Part shown: positions 24,540-28,960 of the stretch, in pieces | How the letters are laid out: every line of letters starts with the position of its first letter | How positions within the stretch are numbered: position 1 is the stretch's first letter | Virus record (IMG/VR): IMGVR_UViG_2541047851_000007 | Length of the DNA: 41,096 nt | Strand: one strand, 5' to 3' | Origin: a virus | Lineage: Duplodnaviria; Heunggongvirae; Uroviricota; Caudoviricetes | Program-made: the position numbers and the translations under genes | The notes under the pieces: generated by a model | Databases searched by the model: none | What the model saw: the letters and a program-made list of their open reading frames with translations, nothing else | Told to the model about the DNA's origin: nothing

Positions 24540-24718
24540 TGTTACCACCTGTTACCACTGTTACCACCATGTTCTTAACCTTTCCCTGAACGACTTATAT
24601 ATATATATGGGGTTGTTAGTAATAAGGTGGTAACAGTGGTAACAGTGGTAACAAACCTTAAATTTCAATACGTTAAAAAGTTACCACCTTACCTTTGCAG
24701 GTGGTAACAGGTGGTTAC
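24540..24718. repeat. Iteron-type replication origin (inverted iteron sets flanking AT-rich tract)
   Basis: Three direct TGTTACCAC(C) repeats (24540-24570), tatatatatatat (24596-24608), three inverted GGTGGTAACA-type repeats (24627-24654), more copies at 24680-24688 and 24700-24718. Confidence 0.65.
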
Positions 24719-26883
24719 GCCCGCCGCCAAACCTTCATTAACTTGCCTTCAACACGTCGTGTTTCACGCTTATATCCGCAATTTTGCAAAACATTGCTAA
24801 TTCGCATTTCTTCGCGTTTTCCGATGCGGTCAGGTTTTAACCCAATCGCATCTCGCAGGACGTCACTAGCACGTAAAAATTCGCAATTTCGCGGAAGTTC
24901 ATTAGTCATCAGGTCGGGCGTGTCGAGCCATTTCTCTACCGTTTCAAGCCAGGCATCCTTGATGGTGTACTGCTCATGGACACTCGCTGCCAGTTGTTCA
25001 GCCTCACGGAACTGGATACCCCCCAGACGCTGAAACACCTCACGAGCCTCAGCCCAAAGTAAAAGGAGATCTCTTTTTATCGCTTTCACGTCGACTTTCG
25101 ACACTTCCACGGGGAGCCAGCGACGGTTACCAGTCTTGTCCGCAAGGAATTCGTCCTCATTGGTGGTACCAACGAACACCAGGCGACGAGGAAACTGGGT
25201 GGCGAACTCCCGGTATTTCGGGATCCAGTTTTCGTGAGTACGCGTCACAAACGCTTTGATTGACTCCAGCTCTTTGGTATTAAGTCCGCGCAGTTCACCA
25301 ATCTCTGCCACCAGCCGACCACGCATTTTTCGAGCGAGATCATCGTCTTTTTCGGCAAAAGAGATTTCAGTAAAAAACGCAGGATCAGGGCTCAGTGCCT
25401 CCACTCCGGAAGACTTACCGCAGCCCTGCGGACCAACGAGGATCGGCACCATATCCGCTTTGATGCCTGGCTCCAGTACTCGCCCCGCCAACGCGGTCCA
25501 CATGTACATAGACACCGCACGGGTATAAGGCGTGTCGGCGGTACCGAAGTGCGTATGGTAGAAACATTCGATGCGCGGCACGCCATCCCACTCCAGTCCG
25601 TTCAGCCAGGTGATCGCTGAATCGAATGGTTGTTCATCGGCTGCAAGTAACACCACATCGCGAATAAGTTCACGGCCAACAGGTTTAAATCCCCGCTTTT
25701 CCATCGTGATGCGCAGGCGCGCATAATCCGCATCGGTGAATGCCCGCCATTGTCCGGATCCTGCCGGGGCAAACATGATTTCGTCGCGGAACTGGTCAAA
25801 GCGAATATCGATGTCCACAAAATCAGGGCGTACTACTGCTTTGGCTGCGTTGCTGATTGTTGCCTCGATACGCCCCCATTTATCACGCTCGAAAGCAGGC
25901 AGCGGTAAAGGTTCCGCCACTTCGGTGCTGGTCAGATCTTCGAAATCGTCGTTGCGGATCCCGATGGCATTCAGGAAATCTCCGTCATCACGATGCGCGC
26001 AACTGGCATGCAGGCATTTAAAATGCCCCTGCTCAAAGCCTGCGGTTCCCGCAGGAAAATAAACTGTGCTTGTTGGATCGCCTCCGCTACTGTGGCCGTC
26101 TTCAAACGGACAGCGGATATATCGTTCACCGTTTGCGCCATCCAGCAGCGTCCAGCCATTGGCATCAAGATATTCAGCTGTATCATCCGTCGCGCCGGGC
26201 GTGAATGCTGAACGGTCGCGCATCTTCGTGTTGCCCGCTTCGGTGGTTACCGACACAGGGAGTTGTTCAGCCAGGCGCTGCCACAGCGTTTCAAGCTGCT
26301 CACCAGTAATAGCCGGAGGTTCATCCGGCAAACCGCCGTCCCATTCAATACGCGCGCCGCTGCTGTGCGTACCGCAGGCAACGAACTGCTGCCCGTTCGC
26401 CAGCAACTCGATAATGCCCATATCCCCCGCCAGGCGATGGATACGCTTACGGAAATCACCATCAACGGCCAGCAGATACAGACACTTATTACTGTTTGCT
26501 CGCCAGCGTCGCGGCGGCGACTCACCCAGAAGTTGCACAAGTGTTTTGCGAATATCTGCCTGAATGTCTTCATCTTCGCTATCGCAGTCCAGCGCCAGCC
26601 AGCCATGGCCTGTACGCACGCAGATCCCATAGTCCGGTTCGTTCGACCAGCGGGCAAAATCATGCTCAGTTACGACGTGCCCAGTCCAGTCGTTAATTCC
26701 GGTAGCCAGACGGTTGCGGTTATACAGGCTCGGCGTTTTGCCAAGCACTTTGAGTTTGCTGTTCGGTGAAATAATCGCGCCCGGATTGCACACGACCGGT
26801 AGCAGCTGGTCCGTACGACCCAGCACCAGGTCGAAGTGGAACCATTCGTCAGGCGTCGCCCCCCACGGTTTGCTATCAGACAT
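24715..26883 (-). CDS. Replication primase-helicase (P4 alpha-like)
   Basis: 722 aa; Cys/His zinc-binding motif, Walker A GPQGCGKSS, downstream FVGTTNEDEF...TGNRRWLPV; adjacent to iterons. Confidence 0.8.
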   Translation of the reverse strand: MSDSKPWGATPDEWFHFDLVLGRTDQLLPVVCNPGAIISPNSKLKVLGKTPSLYNRNRLATGINDWTGHVVTEHDFARWSNEPDYGICVRTGHGWLALDCDSEDEDIQADIRKTLVQLLGESPPRRWRANSNKCLYLLAVDGDFRKRIHRLAGDMGIIELLANGQQFVACGTHSSGARIEWDGGLPDEPPAITGEQLETLWQRLAEQLPVSVTTEAGNTKMRDRSAFTPGATDDTAEYLDANGWTLLDGANGERYIRCPFEDGHSSGGDPTSTVYFPAGTAGFEQGHFKCLHASCAHRDDGDFLNAIGIRNDDFEDLTSTEVAEPLPLPAFERDKWGRIEATISNAAKAVVRPDFVDIDIRFDQFRDEIMFAPAGSGQWRAFTDADYARLRITMEKRGFKPVGRELIRDVVLLAADEQPFDSAITWLNGLEWDGVPRIECFYHTHFGTADTPYTRAVSMYMWTALAGRVLEPGIKADMVPILVGPQGCGKSSGVEALSPDPAFFTEISFAEKDDDLARKMRGRLVAEIGELRGLNTKELESIKAFVTRTHENWIPKYREFATQFPRRLVFVGTTNEDEFLADKTGNRRWLPVEVSKVDVKAIKRDLLLLWAEAREVFQRLGGIQFREAEQLAASVHEQYTIKDAWLETVEKWLDTPDLMTNELPRNCEFLRASDVLRDAIGLKPDRIGKREEMRISNVLQNCGYKRETRRVEGKLMKVWRRA

Positions 26884-26886
26884 GGG

Positions 26887-27126
26887 TTACACCTTTTGCT
26901 GCTCTGAATTTTCGCCGTTTAATAGCCAGTCAGGATCACATTTAAGAACTTTTGCCAATTCAAGAATGAAGCCAGTACGAGTGGCACGACCGGATTCAAG
27001 GTACTGAACAGACTGCTGGCGCATACCAACCCTTTCAGCCAATGAAGTTTGGGTTATGCCTAAGGCTTTGCGGCGCTCCTTTATACGTGAAGCAAGAGTG
27101 GAACCGGACATAAATAACTTCCTCAC
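26887..27126 (-). CDS. Cro-like HTH regulator
   Basis: 79 aa; XRE-type HTH (LGITQTSLAERVGMRQQSVQYLESG); divergent from CI gene; true start may be internal Met 6. Confidence 0.65.
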   Translation of the reverse strand: MRKLFMSGSTLASRIKERRKALGITQTSLAERVGMRQQSVQYLESGRATRTGFILELAKVLKCDPDWLLNGENSEQQKV

Positions 27127-27131
27127 ATGTT

Positions 27132-27193
27132 TACAGGTTTACTTGTAATTAACCCACAGGCACTCTTGTTTGTCAAATACAGATAGCTCTGTA
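27132..27193. promoter_or_regulatory. Tripartite operator region between cro and cI
   Basis: Three 16-bp sites spaced 23 bp: TACAGGTTTACTTGTA (27132-27147), CACAGGCACTCTTGTT (27155-27170), TACAGATAGCTCTGTA (27178-27193); overlaps TTGACA -35 for cro on minus strand. Confidence 0.6.
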
Positions 27194-27220
27194 ATTATCA
27201 ATGACAGAAAAGGAGTCGAT

Positions 27221-27850
27221 ATGAATCTTGCTATCCGGGCCAAAAAGCGCAGAACAGAACTCAATTTAACTCAGGTCGAAGTTGCTAAACGAGCGGGCAT
27301 AAGCCAGCAGTCAATAGAAGCTATAGAGAACGGCAAAACGCTAAAACCACGTAACCTTCTTGCTTTAGCATCGGCTCTGGAGTGTGATCCTAAGTGGTTA
27401 CTACTCGGGGGTGATGTTGTCACGAATTTCAACTACGGAGCCCGAAGGGTGCCTGTTCTAAGCTATGTACAAGCCGGAGCTTTCACAAGCACTGAACAAC
27501 TTCATGAAGGCGGTGATTTCGAATACATCCTGACAACAACGGAATTATCAGAGCGTTCGTTTGCTCTCCGTATACGCGGAGATTCGATGGAGCCAGAATT
27601 TAAAGAGGGTGACATCGTTATAATTGACACTGACGTATACCCTACCCCTGGCGAATTTGTTGCGGCATGCAATGGTAGCCATGAAGCAACGTTCAAAAAG
27701 TACCGCCCGGTAGGGATTGGCGCTAAAGGTGAGGAAGATTTTGAACTTGTTCCCTTAAACAGCGATTACCCTATTTGCCGCTCCTGGGAAAAACCTATCA
27801 AGATTATTGGAACAATGGTGGAGCATCGCATATTCCGCCGAAAAAGATAA
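27221..27850 (+). CDS. CI-like repressor with LexA-like S24 peptidase domain
   Basis: N-terminal HTH (LTQVEVAKRAGISQQSIEAIENG), Ala-Gly site in YVQAGAF, catalytic GDSMEP; start moved to ATG 27221 after AAGGAG RBS. Confidence 0.85.
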   Translation: MNLAIRAKKRRTELNLTQVEVAKRAGISQQSIEAIENGKTLKPRNLLALASALECDPKWLLLGGDVVTNFNYGARRVPVLSYVQAGAFTSTEQLHEGGDFEYILTTTELSERSFALRIRGDSMEPEFKEGDIVIIDTDVYPTPGEFVAACNGSHEATFKKYRPVGIGAKGEEDFELVPLNSDYPICRSWEKPIKIIGTMVEHRIFRRKR

Positions 27851-27871
27851 TCGCATCTTCGCTTCAAACAA

Positions 27872-27895
27872 AGAGGGCTATGGCCCTCTTTTTTA
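27872..27895 (+). terminator. Intrinsic terminator after cI
   Basis: AGAGGGC-TATG-GCCCTCT followed by TTTTTT. Confidence 0.8.
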
Positions 27896-27936
27896 TTCCC
27901 TTAAAAACAAGTAATTAGGTTTTTAATGCAAATTTA

Positions 27937-27980
27937 TACAAGAATACCTGTTGACTTAATTACAGGTTTACTTGTACTTT
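27937..27980 (+). promoter_or_regulatory. Second operator pair with rightward promoter-like element
   Basis: TACAAGAATACCTGTT (27937-27952) and TACAGGTTTACTTGTA (27961-27976, identical to 27132-27147); TTGACT (27951-27956) - 18 bp - TACTTT. Confidence 0.5.
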
Positions 27981-27989
27981 TAATCCAAC

Positions 27990-28180
27990 GAAGTAATCGC
28001 TCTTTAACAAACAGAACCGCGTGACAGGTAAGCCGCAGTGCTCCTGGCAAAACGAAATAGCACCCGATGGGATCGAGGTAAGCGCCGAGTCCGTATGCGT
28101 ACGGTAAGCGTAGAGGACAACACCGCGATGAACTGATAAGTCACGCAAGTTGAAACGCCCCGATGATGGGGCGCTTAGTT
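27990..28180 (+). ncRNA. Candidate structured non-coding RNA / leader element
   Basis: No credible ORF; closing stem GCGTGAC (28019-28025) with GTCACGC (28140-28146); internal hairpin CCGTA-TGCG-TACGG (28090-28103); terminal hairpin CGCCCC-GATGAT-GGGGCG (28156-28173) then U-rich tail. Confidence 0.25.
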
Positions 28181-28224
28181 CCTTTAACTCTGGGTGACCG
28201 GAAGGGTACCCATGCTTAAAGAAA

Positions 28225-28794
28225 TTACTGGTTGTAAGGATCGTAATCCGTGATTGCCTTCCCCGGATTTTCATCTTCAGAAGGCAGTCGGGCCTCTAAA
28301 GCATTTCGGTTGAACAGATAGGAAGCCCTACAGTACGAACAAACCATATTAACGGCTCGCCCAAGGCCTGGCTTAGTAACCAGTCCTTCCGCTTGCAATA
28401 TAGATTTTCTCTTTTGCTCGTAGCAATTGGGACAAATATAAACCGGAGATTGGTCAGCATCTGCAGAAAGCTTGCTGCGATAGACCAGAGTCCCCCGCAT
28501 AGGCTGGTAAAGTTCATAGCTCGCCGCTTCAGCGGCCCAGTTCTCTTGCTTTACTTTCTCATTTTCCAGTTCAACAATTTTCTCCTTAGCCGCAATCAGC
28601 AGCTCCTGAAGCGACATTTGCTGCATCTGAACATCCATTAGCTTATCGAGTAAGATGTGCGTCTTCTCTTTAACTGCATAGTCTACAGTCAGATTCTGAA
28701 TCTCTCTTGCTGCTCCAACCGCGCTTTTAATTGCTCCTCCCACGCCGGATAACGATTCAGTTATCCGGGAAAGAATTCCTTTTTCTTCAGACAT
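28225..28794 (-). CDS. Coiled-coil / zinc-ribbon protein, unknown function (immunity-region moron)
   Basis: 189 aa; helical N-terminus; CPNC...x25...CSYC at C-terminus; convergent with cI, divergent from early operon; AT-rich. Confidence 0.55.
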   Translation of the reverse strand: MSEEKGILSRITESLSGVGGAIKSAVGAAREIQNLTVDYAVKEKTHILLDKLMDVQMQQMSLQELLIAAKEKIVELENEKVKQENWAAEAASYELYQPMRGTLVYRSKLSADADQSPVYICPNCYEQKRKSILQAEGLVTKPGLGRAVNMVCSYCRASYLFNRNALEARLPSEDENPGKAITDYDPYNQ

Positions 28795-28810: not shown

Positions 28811-28886
28811 ACTGTAGGGGTGAAGAGATATTAGACGATTTCTCACTGTAGGGGTACAAGGAGAACCACCTCGCCTGATGTGGTTA
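28811..28886. repeat. Direct repeats and inverted repeat upstream of zinc-ribbon gene
   Basis: ACTGTAGGGGT at 28811-28821 and 28845-28855, each preceded by TCTC; inverted repeat AACCAC-N10-GTGGTT at 28865-28886. Confidence 0.5.
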
Positions 28887-28933: not shown

Positions 28934-28960
28934 GCCCGCCGCAAGTGACGGGCTTTTTTA
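28934..28960 (+). terminator. Possible leader terminator/attenuator before early operon
   Basis: GCCCG-(10 nt)-CGGGC followed by TTTTTT; short stem, long loop. Confidence 0.35.

Follow-up and report, generated by a model that had tools for sequence, protein, structure and literature searches.

In co-crystal structures of the phage 434 repressor, Gln33 reads position 4 of the operator half-site; a literature search on this contact gave nothing useful. Relative to the locus described here, phage lambda has operators of another length (17 bp) and a different sequence, and a Cro protein that differs in fold and in HTH specificity. The lambda PR and PRM -35 hexamers do not overlap, and the lambda cI mRNA made from PRM is leaderless. 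The operators of P22 are longer and different, and its recognition helix is different as well. The 434 operators are 14-bp sites of the form ACAA-N6-TTGT, among which OR3 reads ACAGTTTTTCTTGT (PMC1636474). RecA-stimulated cleavage is established for the 434, P22 and lambda repressors (PMC3564112).

The DNA analysed here, referred to as the window, is a stretch of 41,096 bp. Read from its sequence, the region around cro and cI serves an E. coli prophage as the control region for lysis and lysogeny, close in structure to the textbook 434 switch with a slightly changed operator sequence, and we regard it as very probably a 434-type CI/Cro bistable immunity switch. The 434-type immunity family thereby gains a member that is ordinary in kind, carried by a SEN34-like myovirus prophage. 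The prophage backbone (structural genes) is 98.5% identical to isolated myoviruses of the vB_EcoM-606R2 group and 81% identical to SEN34, and the prophage itself is present in about 26 of 5,426 complete E. coli genomes. The prophage genes include the full set for lysis, packaging and the virion. A plasmid origin search gave no match, an Rfam search of the whole window at gathering thresholds gave none, and a literature search with the exact operator sequences returned nothing relevant.

Predicted operators and promoters between cro and cI

The cro-like gene and cI are divergent and enclose three operator-like sites, listed below both as the 16-bp sites first reported and as 14-bp cores, together with two opposed promoters:

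26887..27111, minus strand: cro-like gene, 74 aa, HTH_3 (ORF list; Pfam HTH_3 E = 2.3e-14)
27132-27147: OR site 1 in its 16-bp form, TACAGGTTTACTTGTA
27133..27146: OR1-like operator ACAGGTTTACTTGT, aligning with annotated 434 OR1; identical in the relative CREC-544
27148..27153, minus strand: inferred PR -10 GTTAAT, 17-bp spacer (sequence reading; same position as the annotated 434 pR -10 GAAAAT)
27155-27170: OR site 2 in its 16-bp form, CACAGGCACTCTTGTT
27156..27169: OR2-like operator ACAGGCACTCTTGT, aligning with 434 OR2
27170..27176: overlapping opposite-strand -35 hexamers, PRM TTGTCA (27170-27175, plus) and PR TTGACA (27176..27171, minus)
27178-27193: OR site 3 in its 16-bp form, TACAGATAGCTCTGTA
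27179..27192: OR3-like operator ACAGATAGCTCTGT, aligning with 434 OR3 (ACAGTTTTTCTTGT)
27193..27198, plus strand: PRM -10 hexamer AATTAT (promoter scan; geometry as for the annotated 434 pRM -10 and start)
27221..27850, plus strand: cI, 209 aa, HTH_3 and Peptidase_S24 (Pfam; alignments to lambda CI and the 434 repressor)

In the three sites the 14-bp core, ACAG-N6-YTGT, begins at 27133, 27156 and 27179, so that the spacing is exactly 23 + 23 bp. A preliminary description of this DNA had reported three 16-bp sites 23 bp apart between cro and cI. The sites, their location and the exact spacing are borne out; the conserved unit is the 14-bp core, and the 16-bp form fits sites 1 and 3 only, because site 2 lacks the outer T/A. 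That account of a three-operator switch also holds for OR, but it had missed a distal pair of sites at a PL-like promoter, with which the detectable operators number five (3 + 2). The TTGACA -35 on the cro strand, which it had drawn as overlapping the sites, instead abuts them, as it falls between core 2 and core 3. Across the five operators position 4 of the half-site gives 6 ACAG and 4 ACAA: in OR1, OR2, OL1 and OL2 an ACAA half-site faces an ACAG half-site, and only OR3 has ACAG on both sides, forming a perfect palindrome across its outer 4+4 bases.

The promoter scan returned PRM as TTGTCA-17-AATTAT with an upstream TG. Its transcription start is inferred near 27206, and a Shine-Dalgarno sequence for cI, AAGGAG, lies at 27210-27215, so the cI message probably has a leader of ~15 nt with a ribosome binding site, which the lambda PRM transcript lacks. 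OR3 lies within the PRM spacer and its CTGT provides the TG of the extended -10. OR2 lies within the PR spacer, abutting the PRM -35 hexamer and centred about -43.5 from the inferred PRM start, as in 434, and OR1 spans the inferred PR transcription start (near 27141, minus strand). The cro gene is preceded by the Shine-Dalgarno sequence GAGGAAG at 27124..27118. The inferred PR -10 (GTTAAT) and the -10 of the PL-like promoter described below (GTACTT) are poor consensus matches that the promoter scan did not report, in the case of GTTAAT because it has no A at position 2; both are placed by collinearity with 434.

Over the 41,096 bp of the window, a search for ACAG-N6-YTGT gave just 5 places, as compared to an average of 2.17 in shuffled sequence (both strands), and all five fall in two clusters that flank cI at promoter regions; the looser ACAR-N6-YTGT finds the same 5 places across the whole window. 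For the 109-bp intergenic region, the probability that at least three such sites arise by chance is ~3e-8.

The half-sites are also the part of the region that is conserved. In the 89%-identical E. coli relative CREC-544, intergenic substitutions hit 0/24 half-site positions, 6/18 positions in operator centres and 16/67 positions elsewhere (Fisher p = 0.003); its differences in OR2 are confined to central bases, and its OR3 keeps both half-sites with four central bases changed. The string TTTGTCAA(A/T)TACAG is invariant across relatives, and OR2 deviates (CTGGT) in L004-L006. In Pantoea, Tatumella, Erwinia, Enterobacter, Xenorhabdus and Gilliamella, homologues with 54-59% identity to CI also have Q-Q-S helices and are accompanied by three ACAG-N6-CTGT sites at a spacing of 22 + 23 bp; most have a distal pair too, 23-24 bp apart and downstream of cI. 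Homologues with different recognition helices have different palindromes at the same locations.

These observations bear on another explanation, in which the palindromes recur by chance or serve a host factor such as LexA in place of CI and Cro. The LexA box of E. coli is indeed built from ACAG and CTGT as well, but in the opposite order (CTGT-N8-ACAG); no LexA box is present anywhere in the window, and from locus to locus the sites vary together with the recognition helix of the neighbouring repressor. With the chance probability given above, we consider this explanation extremely unlikely. Homology and the comparative evidence support a three-operator CI/Cro switch.

Predicted distal operators, a PL-like promoter and the boxA leader

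Beyond cI we identified the following elements:

27870..27898, plus strand: intrinsic terminator of the cI transcript, a 9-bp stem followed by a T run (terminator scan)
27938..27951: OL2-like operator ACAAGAATACCTGT, aligning with 434 oL2
27951..27979, plus strand: PL-like early promoter, TTGACT (27951-27956), 17-bp spacer, GTACTT (27974-27979) (sequence reading)
27962..27975: OL1-like operator ACAGGTTTACTTGT, aligning with 434 oL1; conserved in L004-L006
27999..28010, plus strand: boxA GCTCTTTAACAA, rrn/nut-type (NusB-NusE), an exact match and unique in the window

OL1 is an exact copy of OR1 (16/16 bases; 19/20 with flanks) and covers the PL spacer and -10 region. OL2 touches the PL -35 hexamer from immediately upstream; in the close relatives (L004-L006, CREC-544) its sequence is degenerate, and distant relatives have a perfect pair at this location. 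The PL-like promoter is directed away from cI, with a transcription start inferred near 27987. It was not reported by the consensus promoter scan and lines up with the -10 and start site annotated for 434 pL, CTTGTA(A/C)TTTTAA(G/T)CCA. A candidate third OL operator at 27907 was rejected, as it scores 6/8 and the background for 6/8 is ~11 per kb.

The boxA lies ~12 nt past the inferred PL start and forms the right-hand edge of an exchangeable immunity module: at least six different modules join the same leader exactly there, and relatives likewise carry boxA after the distal operators. Thus 434-type immunity modules swap as cassettes onto a non-lambdoid backbone, with one cassette edge exactly at boxA. 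After cro, a search allowing one mismatch found no second boxA, which some relatives have; no cII-like gene was seen adjoining cro.

A search for an N gene found no ORF of at least 40 aa on the plus strand between 27987 and 28998. The minus strand carries the sole gene of this interval (28225-28794), whose 189-aa antisense protein had no PADLOC or Pfam match and a PHROGs match only to a family of unknown function. The path of a PL transcript to the early genes crosses this antisense gene and two terminator-like hairpins. Local hairpins are predicted in the leader RNA (27986-28200), with a fold stability at the level of shuffled sequence (z = 0.30). Aligned leaders from six loci contained no compensatory changes, the only event being the deletion of a 26-nt repeat unit in L090. 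A distant blastn search for diverged leaders in phages returned near-identical copies only, and a permissive Rfam search of 27850-28300 returned sub-threshold chance matches only.

CI, Cro and the relation to phage 434

The residues of CI referred to below are encoded at the following plus-strand positions:

27305-27334: recognition helix, Q29-Q30-S31-I-E-A34
27473-27478: predicted cleavage site, Ala85-Gly86
27584-27586: predicted catalytic Ser122
27695-27697: predicted catalytic Lys159

CI matches PF01381 with 54.8 bits and, over residues 78-200, PF00717 with 66.3 bits (cut-off 23.3); its RefSeq name is 'LexA family protein'. The best PDB matches of both its N-terminal domain and Cro are 434 Cro and the 434 repressor, ungapped over 61-64 residues. 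By phmmer, the CI N-terminal domain matches the 434 repressor with E = 2e-12 (residues 3-63, ungapped, 30/60 identical), and Cro matches 434 Cro with E = 1.5e-15, also ungapped and with 50% identity over 62 residues. Full-length CI is 35% identical to 434 CI (E = 5e-31). The recognition helix reads QQSIEAIENG here and QQSIEQLENG in the 434 repressor, and that of Cro also starts with Q-Q-S. P22 C2, which also belongs to the HTH_3 repressors, is matched in the PDB less strongly than the 434 proteins are (E = 1.7e-6 with CI, 5e-8 with Cro).

In its C-terminal half CI has the motifs VQA85-G86AF, GDS122MEP and TFK159K. Ala85-Gly86, Ser122 and Lys159 align with A111-G112, S149 and K192 of lambda CI and with the equivalent residues of the 434 repressor, and all 19 relatives L004-L022 have AG, GDSM and TFKK without variation. 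E. coli LexA shares this S24 chemistry of self-cleavage (Ala-Gly, Ser, Lys) but differs in having a winged-helix domain and a CTGT-N8-ACAG box in place of HTH_3 and ACAG-N6-CTGT. The Ala-Gly site and GDSMEP of the preliminary description are thus present. Homology and comparative evidence support the conclusion that CI carries all sequence determinants for RecA-stimulated self-cleavage.

The likeness to 434 extends through the whole region, and here the preliminary description, which had taken the operators for an ACAG/CTGT family unlike those of lambda and 434, is contradicted. We compared the locus with the annotated 434 record, in which the -35 hexamers of pRM (1741-1746) and pR (1742-1747) overlap. 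Both phages have 14-bp two-fold symmetric operators with ACA...TGT outer bases and variable uncontacted centres, three OR sites 22-23 bp apart, -35 hexamers of PR and PRM that overlap in the interval from OR2 to OR3, and OL1 and OL2 overlapping a PL that faces away from cI. The OR sites stand at -88/-65/-42 from the cI start codon here and at -90/-68/-45 in 434, and the 18-nt string CTTGTTTGTCAAATACAG is identical in the annotated 434 OR. The DNA-binding domains of CI and Cro are 50% identical to those of 434, ungapped, with the Q-Q-S recognition helix, and CI, like the 434 repressor, is of the S24 kind, with Ala-Gly, Ser and Lys. These elements of sequence, their conservation and their homology to annotated and experimentally characterised 434 elements are direct observations.

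The differences from 434 are of two kinds. In the operators and repressor, half-site position 4 is G in 6/10 half-sites here and in 1/12 in 434 (A in 11/12), CI has Ala34 where the 434 repressor has Gln33, the OR1-OR2 spacing is 23 bp as compared to 22, and two OL sites are detectable in place of three. In the surroundings, no hex gene follows cI, which has its own terminator; PL is followed by a consensus boxA and an opposite-strand gene, with no N gene; and the carrier phage, a SEN34-like myovirus, has a VapE primase along with a family A DNA polymerase module, whereas 434 is a lambdoid siphovirus. The excess of G at position 4, which rises to nearly all half-sites in the more distant relatives, and the Ala34 replacement are what could be said for a distinct operator family unrelated to 434 or lambda. 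Against this, 434 OR3 is itself ACAG-N6-TTGT, four of the five sites here pair an ACAA-type with an ACAG-type half-site, and operator size, outer triplets, spacing, positions from the cI start, promoter overlap and the 18-nt string are common to both phages. PL, OL1 and OL2 are also collinear with 434, and both CI and Cro are closest to the 434 proteins; we find a separate family very improbable. Given the 6 ACAG and 4 ACAA half-sites and the replacement of Gln33 by Ala34, the 434-type module described here is related to imm434 but distinct from it, and it would be expected to be heteroimmune with imm434. The likeness to lambda is more general: cI and cro are divergent with three operators ~23 bp apart, a second operator cluster lies at an early promoter beyond cI, and the CI C-terminal domain is homologous, with aligned cleavage and catalytic residues.

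Proposed operation of the switch

From these elements we infer operator binding, an order of occupancy, activation of PRM and RecA-dependent induction. In a lysogen, CI dimers would bind the 14-bp operators through the HTH, using the recognition helix that starts with Gln-Gln-Ser. CI on OR1 (27133) and OR2 (27156) would block PR (-35 27176..27171, -10 27153..27148), from which transcription would otherwise run along the minus strand through cro and the genes for the VapE-type primase, Q, lysis and the virion. As OR2 lies directly beside the PRM -35, CI bound there would be placed to stimulate its own synthesis, and at high CI levels occupation of OR3 (27179), inside the PRM spacer, would shut PRM off. 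CI on OL1 and OL2 (27962 and 27938) would cover the PL-like promoter, which when free is predicted to fire rightward through the boxA leader toward replication and recombination genes. Since position 4 is mixed and an Ala of CI replaces Gln33 of 434, the relative affinities and the order of occupancy are not predictable.

After DNA damage, RecA filaments would stimulate CI self-cleavage at Ala85-Gly86 by Ser122 and Lys159, releasing PR and PL, and Cro, with the same Q-Q-S helix, would take the same operators and turn PRM off. The switch could operate as described and yet be induced otherwise, through an antirepressor or some signal other than SOS, or the prophage might be non-inducible because it is defective. 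Some S24-type phage repressors are poor at cleavage, and the step is tunable, as 434 Hex modulates it (PMC3564112). We nevertheless judge such alternatives unlikely, because Ala-Gly, Ser and Lys of CI are intact and invariant across relatives, the 41-kb window has no LexA box to drive a LexA-controlled antirepressor, and a defective prophage is at odds with full lysis, packaging and virion genes and with structural genes 98.5% identical to those of isolated phages. The production of SEN34 is mitomycin C-inducible (PMC5261728).

The relevance of the 434-type switch lies mainly in annotation and prophage biology, as it assigns an immunity type to a SEN34-like myovirus prophage; no open question depends on it. 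Two more tentative ideas, possible though on balance doubtful, are that the module is a natural specificity variant between imm434 and an ACAG-only family (Pantoea, Gilliamella) and that antitermination from PL is N-independent. The latter, by Nus factors alone or by the RNA itself, is suggested by the consensus rrn-type boxA, the lack of an N gene and the obstacles before the early genes. If the module is such a variant, OR3 would be told from OR1 and OR2 by the same base pair as in 434 with the sign altered, and partial cross-immunity with 434 may occur. The series from 434 (ACAA, Gln33) through this phage (mixed, Ala34) to Pantoea and Gilliamella (ACAG, Ser or Ala) could serve as a small natural data set on the drift of HTH specificity.

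Operators on both sides of cI

A preliminary description of this switch had placed three 16-bp operators, 23 bp apart, between cro and cI. In outline this is right, and the spacing holds, but site 2 departs from the 16-bp form that sites 1 and 3 follow, and the count was incomplete because a second cluster lies at 27938-27975. The elements are as follows.

24715-26883: VapE-type primase gene, 722 aa, its start overlapped by the cro stop codon (26883-26887)
26887-27111, minus: cro-like gene, 74 aa, HTH_3
27132-27147: site 1 (OR1), TACAGGTTTACTTGTA, 14-bp core from 27133
27155-27170: site 2 (OR2), CACAGGCACTCTTGTT, 14-bp core from 27156
27170-27175, plus: TTGTCA, −35 of the cI promoter PRM, overlapping the opposite-strand TTGACA of PR
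27176..27171, minus: TTGACA, −35 of the cro-side promoter PR (TTGACA-17-GTTAAT)
27178-27193: site 3 (OR3), TACAGATAGCTCTGTA, 14-bp core from 27179
27221-27850, plus: cI, 209 aa, HTH_3 and Peptidase_S24
27870-27891: cI terminator
27938-27951: OL2, operator-like site (motif match) downstream of the cI terminator
27951-27956, plus: TTGACT, −35 of a PL-like promoter (TTGACT-17-GTACTT) directed away from cI, putative start near 27987
27962-27975: OL1, operator-like site past the cI terminator, identical to site 1 at 16/16 bases

The conserved unit is the 14-bp core ACAG-N6-YTGT, and the cores of sites 1 to 3 are exactly 23 bp apart. A pattern search for this core across the 41-kb window returned five sites and no more, all in the two clusters flanking cI, and a looser search with ACAR-N6-YTGT gave the same five. 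At the background rate derived from shuffled sequence, the probability of at least three sites in the 109-bp intergenic region is ∼3e-8. The minus-strand TTGACA thought to be overlapped by the operators is present, but it lies between cores 2 and 3 and abuts the sites. OL1 and OL2, 24 bp apart, bracket TTGACT and form a second operator cluster on the promoter directed away from cI. Only two OL sites are detectable, and some close relatives have degenerate versions of OL2 and OR2. The promoter scan independently identified PRM as TTGTCA-17-AATTAT with an upstream TG (putative start at 27206); the −10 hexamers of PR and PL are weak, and the scan missed both.

A 434-type switch in an E. coli prophage

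Among all PDB sequences, both the CI N-terminal domain and Cro find their best matches in 434 Cro and 434 repressor, with gapless alignments over 61-64 residues. Over its full length, CI shares 35% identity with 434 CI (E = 5e-31); for Cro, identity to 434 Cro is 50%. In the annotated phage 434 sequence record, OR1 (ACAAACTTTCTTGT), OR2 (ACAATGTATCTTGT) and OR3 (ACAGTTTTTCTTGT) lie at −90/−68/−45 from the cI ATG, as compared to −88/−65/−42 in the window, and the 434 annotation shows the −35 hexamers of pRM and pR, one on each strand, overlapping in the OR2-OR3 gap, as they do here. Both contain the 18-nt string CTTGTTTGTCAAATACAG, 434 oL2, oL1 and pL align with the distal cluster, and CTTGTA(A/C)TTTTAA(G/T)CCA, spanning the annotated −10 and start site, is common to 434 pL and the window PL. 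Because the protein matches, operator positions, −35 overlap and shared strings all fit 434, the earlier view that the operators are not 434-like is wrong.

The 434 sites are 14 bp long, with the outer 4 + 4 bases conserved save for one exception (PMC1636474). That single exception is the ACAG half-site of OR3, and position 4 of the half-site is G in 1/12 cases in 434 versus 6/10 in the window. The window CI has Ala34 at the place of Gln33 in 434 repressor; in the 434 co-crystal structures of Aggarwal et al. 1988 and Rodgers and Harrison 1993, Gln33 reportedly reads position 4. The real departure of these operators from 434 is half-site position 4, where the mixture of bases precludes predicting the order of occupancy.

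For the C-terminal domain of CI the match is the corresponding domain of lambda CI, whose A111-G112, S149 and K192 align with VQAG, G(D/N)SM and TFKK. The cleavage motifs first noted in CI, Ala85-Gly86 and Gly-Asp-Ser122-Met-Glu-Pro, are present, as is Thr-Phe-Lys159-Lys, and AG, GDSM and TFKK are invariant in all 19 homologous loci L004-L022. RecA-stimulated cleavage is known for the 434, P22 and lambda repressors (PMC3564112).

The elements of the switch are read directly from the DNA, and from them we infer their functions. CI on OR1 and OR2 would block PR, since OR2 lies inside the PR spacer and OR1 at its start site, leaving cro, the VapE primase, Q, and the lysis and virion genes silent. 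The OR2 centre is at about −43.5 from the PRM start, the same position as in 434, and CI at OR2 would therefore be placed to activate PRM. OR3 occupies the PRM spacer and would mediate negative autoregulation, while CI on OL1 and OL2 would block PL. Upon DNA damage, RecA-stimulated cleavage at Ala85-Gly86 would inactivate CI, and Cro would then occupy the same operators. The window contains no LexA box, so a LexA-controlled antirepressor is not evident.

The window is a chromosomal prophage of E. coli. The 1.34-kb region around the switch is 100% identical to E. coli A34, whose prophage adjoins yfhL/shoB with a tyrosine integrase at its end, and to several RIVM isolates. At least 80% of this region is present in ∼26/5,426 complete E. 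coli genomes and in none of the plasmids of the searched collection. Over its structural half, the prophage shares 98.5% identity with the isolated myoviruses vB_EcoM-606R2, 611R5, 683R1 and 689R2, and 81% with Salmonella phage SEN34. SEN34 is temperate and a myovirus, and mitomycin C induces its production (PMC5261728). The feature is genuine and adds a new member, carried on a SEN34-like myovirus backbone, to the well-known family of 434-type immunity regions.

The PL leader and early genes

Transcription from PL would meet the following features.

27999-28010, plus: boxA GCTCTTTAACAA, exact consensus, 12 nt past the putative PL start, unique in the window
28011-28224: PL leader, ∼215 nt, ∼97% conserved in heteroimmune phages
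28156-28173: PL leader hairpin, on the path from PL to the early genes
28225-28794, minus: gene for a 189-aa protein, antisense to the PL transcript and convergent with cI
28811-28821 and 28845-28855: two copies of the repeat ACTGTAGGGGT, 34 bp apart
28934-28959, plus: terminator-like hairpin GCCCG-N10-CGGGC followed by TTTTTT (T6 run)

Homology with heteroimmune phages resumes exactly at boxA. Because at least six immunity modules, which are unrelated and differ in their operator palindromes, join the same leader exactly there (IMG/VR loci L085-L094), boxA marks the module boundary and is a recombination junction. PL of one of these loci, L088, carries a perfect 434-consensus site, ACAATTCAAATTGT. 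GGTAAGC occurs three times in the leader (from 28027, 28077 and 28103), the second and third copies being separated by the small hairpin CCGTA-TGCG-TACGG, and in the L090 leader exactly one 26-nt repeat unit is missing. The leader folds no better than shuffled sequence and showed no Rfam family match and no covariation; it may serve in antitermination, as an origin or as a binding site for a protein.

No N gene was found, as the plus strand has no ORF of at least 40 aa from PL to 28998. The sole gene in this interval encodes the 189-aa protein, which has a coiled-coil N-terminus and a CxxC...CxxC C-terminus, matches phrog_1244 (a family of unknown function) and has no match in Pfam or PADLOC. 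The terminator-like hairpin directly precedes the first early gene on the plus strand (28998), which suggests that expression of the early genes requires antitermination or some other regulator. After cro there is no space for nutR or cII, in contrast to 434 and lambda.

Relatives of the switch

In E. coli CREC-544 (89% identical), CI shares 201/209 residues and the same recognition helix. Substitutions between its 109-bp intergenic region and that of the window fall at 0/24 half-site positions, 6/18 positions in operator centres and 16/67 elsewhere (Fisher p = 0.003). CI homologues at 54-59% identity occur in Pantoea, Tatumella, Erwinia, Enterobacter, Xenorhabdus and Gilliamella. All keep the Q-Q-S helix in both CI and Cro, with three ACAG-N6-CTGT sites at spacings of 22 + 23 bp and an invariant TTTGTCAA(A/T)TACAG, and most have a distal operator pair, 23-24 bp apart, at 0.7-3 kb past the start of cI. 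Homologues whose C-terminal domain is related but whose recognition helix differs have other palindromes in the same places, such as three copies of ATTAG-N4-CTAAT in Acinetobacter and CGCAT...ATGCG in vB_EcoM-606R2. Together, CREC-544, the distant relatives and the other-helix homologues indicate that the sites are probably functional.

At the homologous loci L007-L009, L012-L020 and L022, where OR1 and OR2 are 22 bp apart, the neighbouring half-sites of the two together read CTGT-N8-ACAG, the core sequence of a LexA box of the E. coli type; a Gilliamella example, AACTGTATTAAATAACAGTT, overlaps the PR −10 region. PR at these loci might be co-repressed by host LexA. With its 23-bp spacing and a TTGT half-site, the window has no such box between OR1 and OR2. 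The operator set is mostly or wholly missing at the CI homologues of Sodalis (L010, L011) and of one Gilliamella locus (L021), some of which are without a divergent cro; these could be the remains of prophages decaying in the genomes of symbionts.
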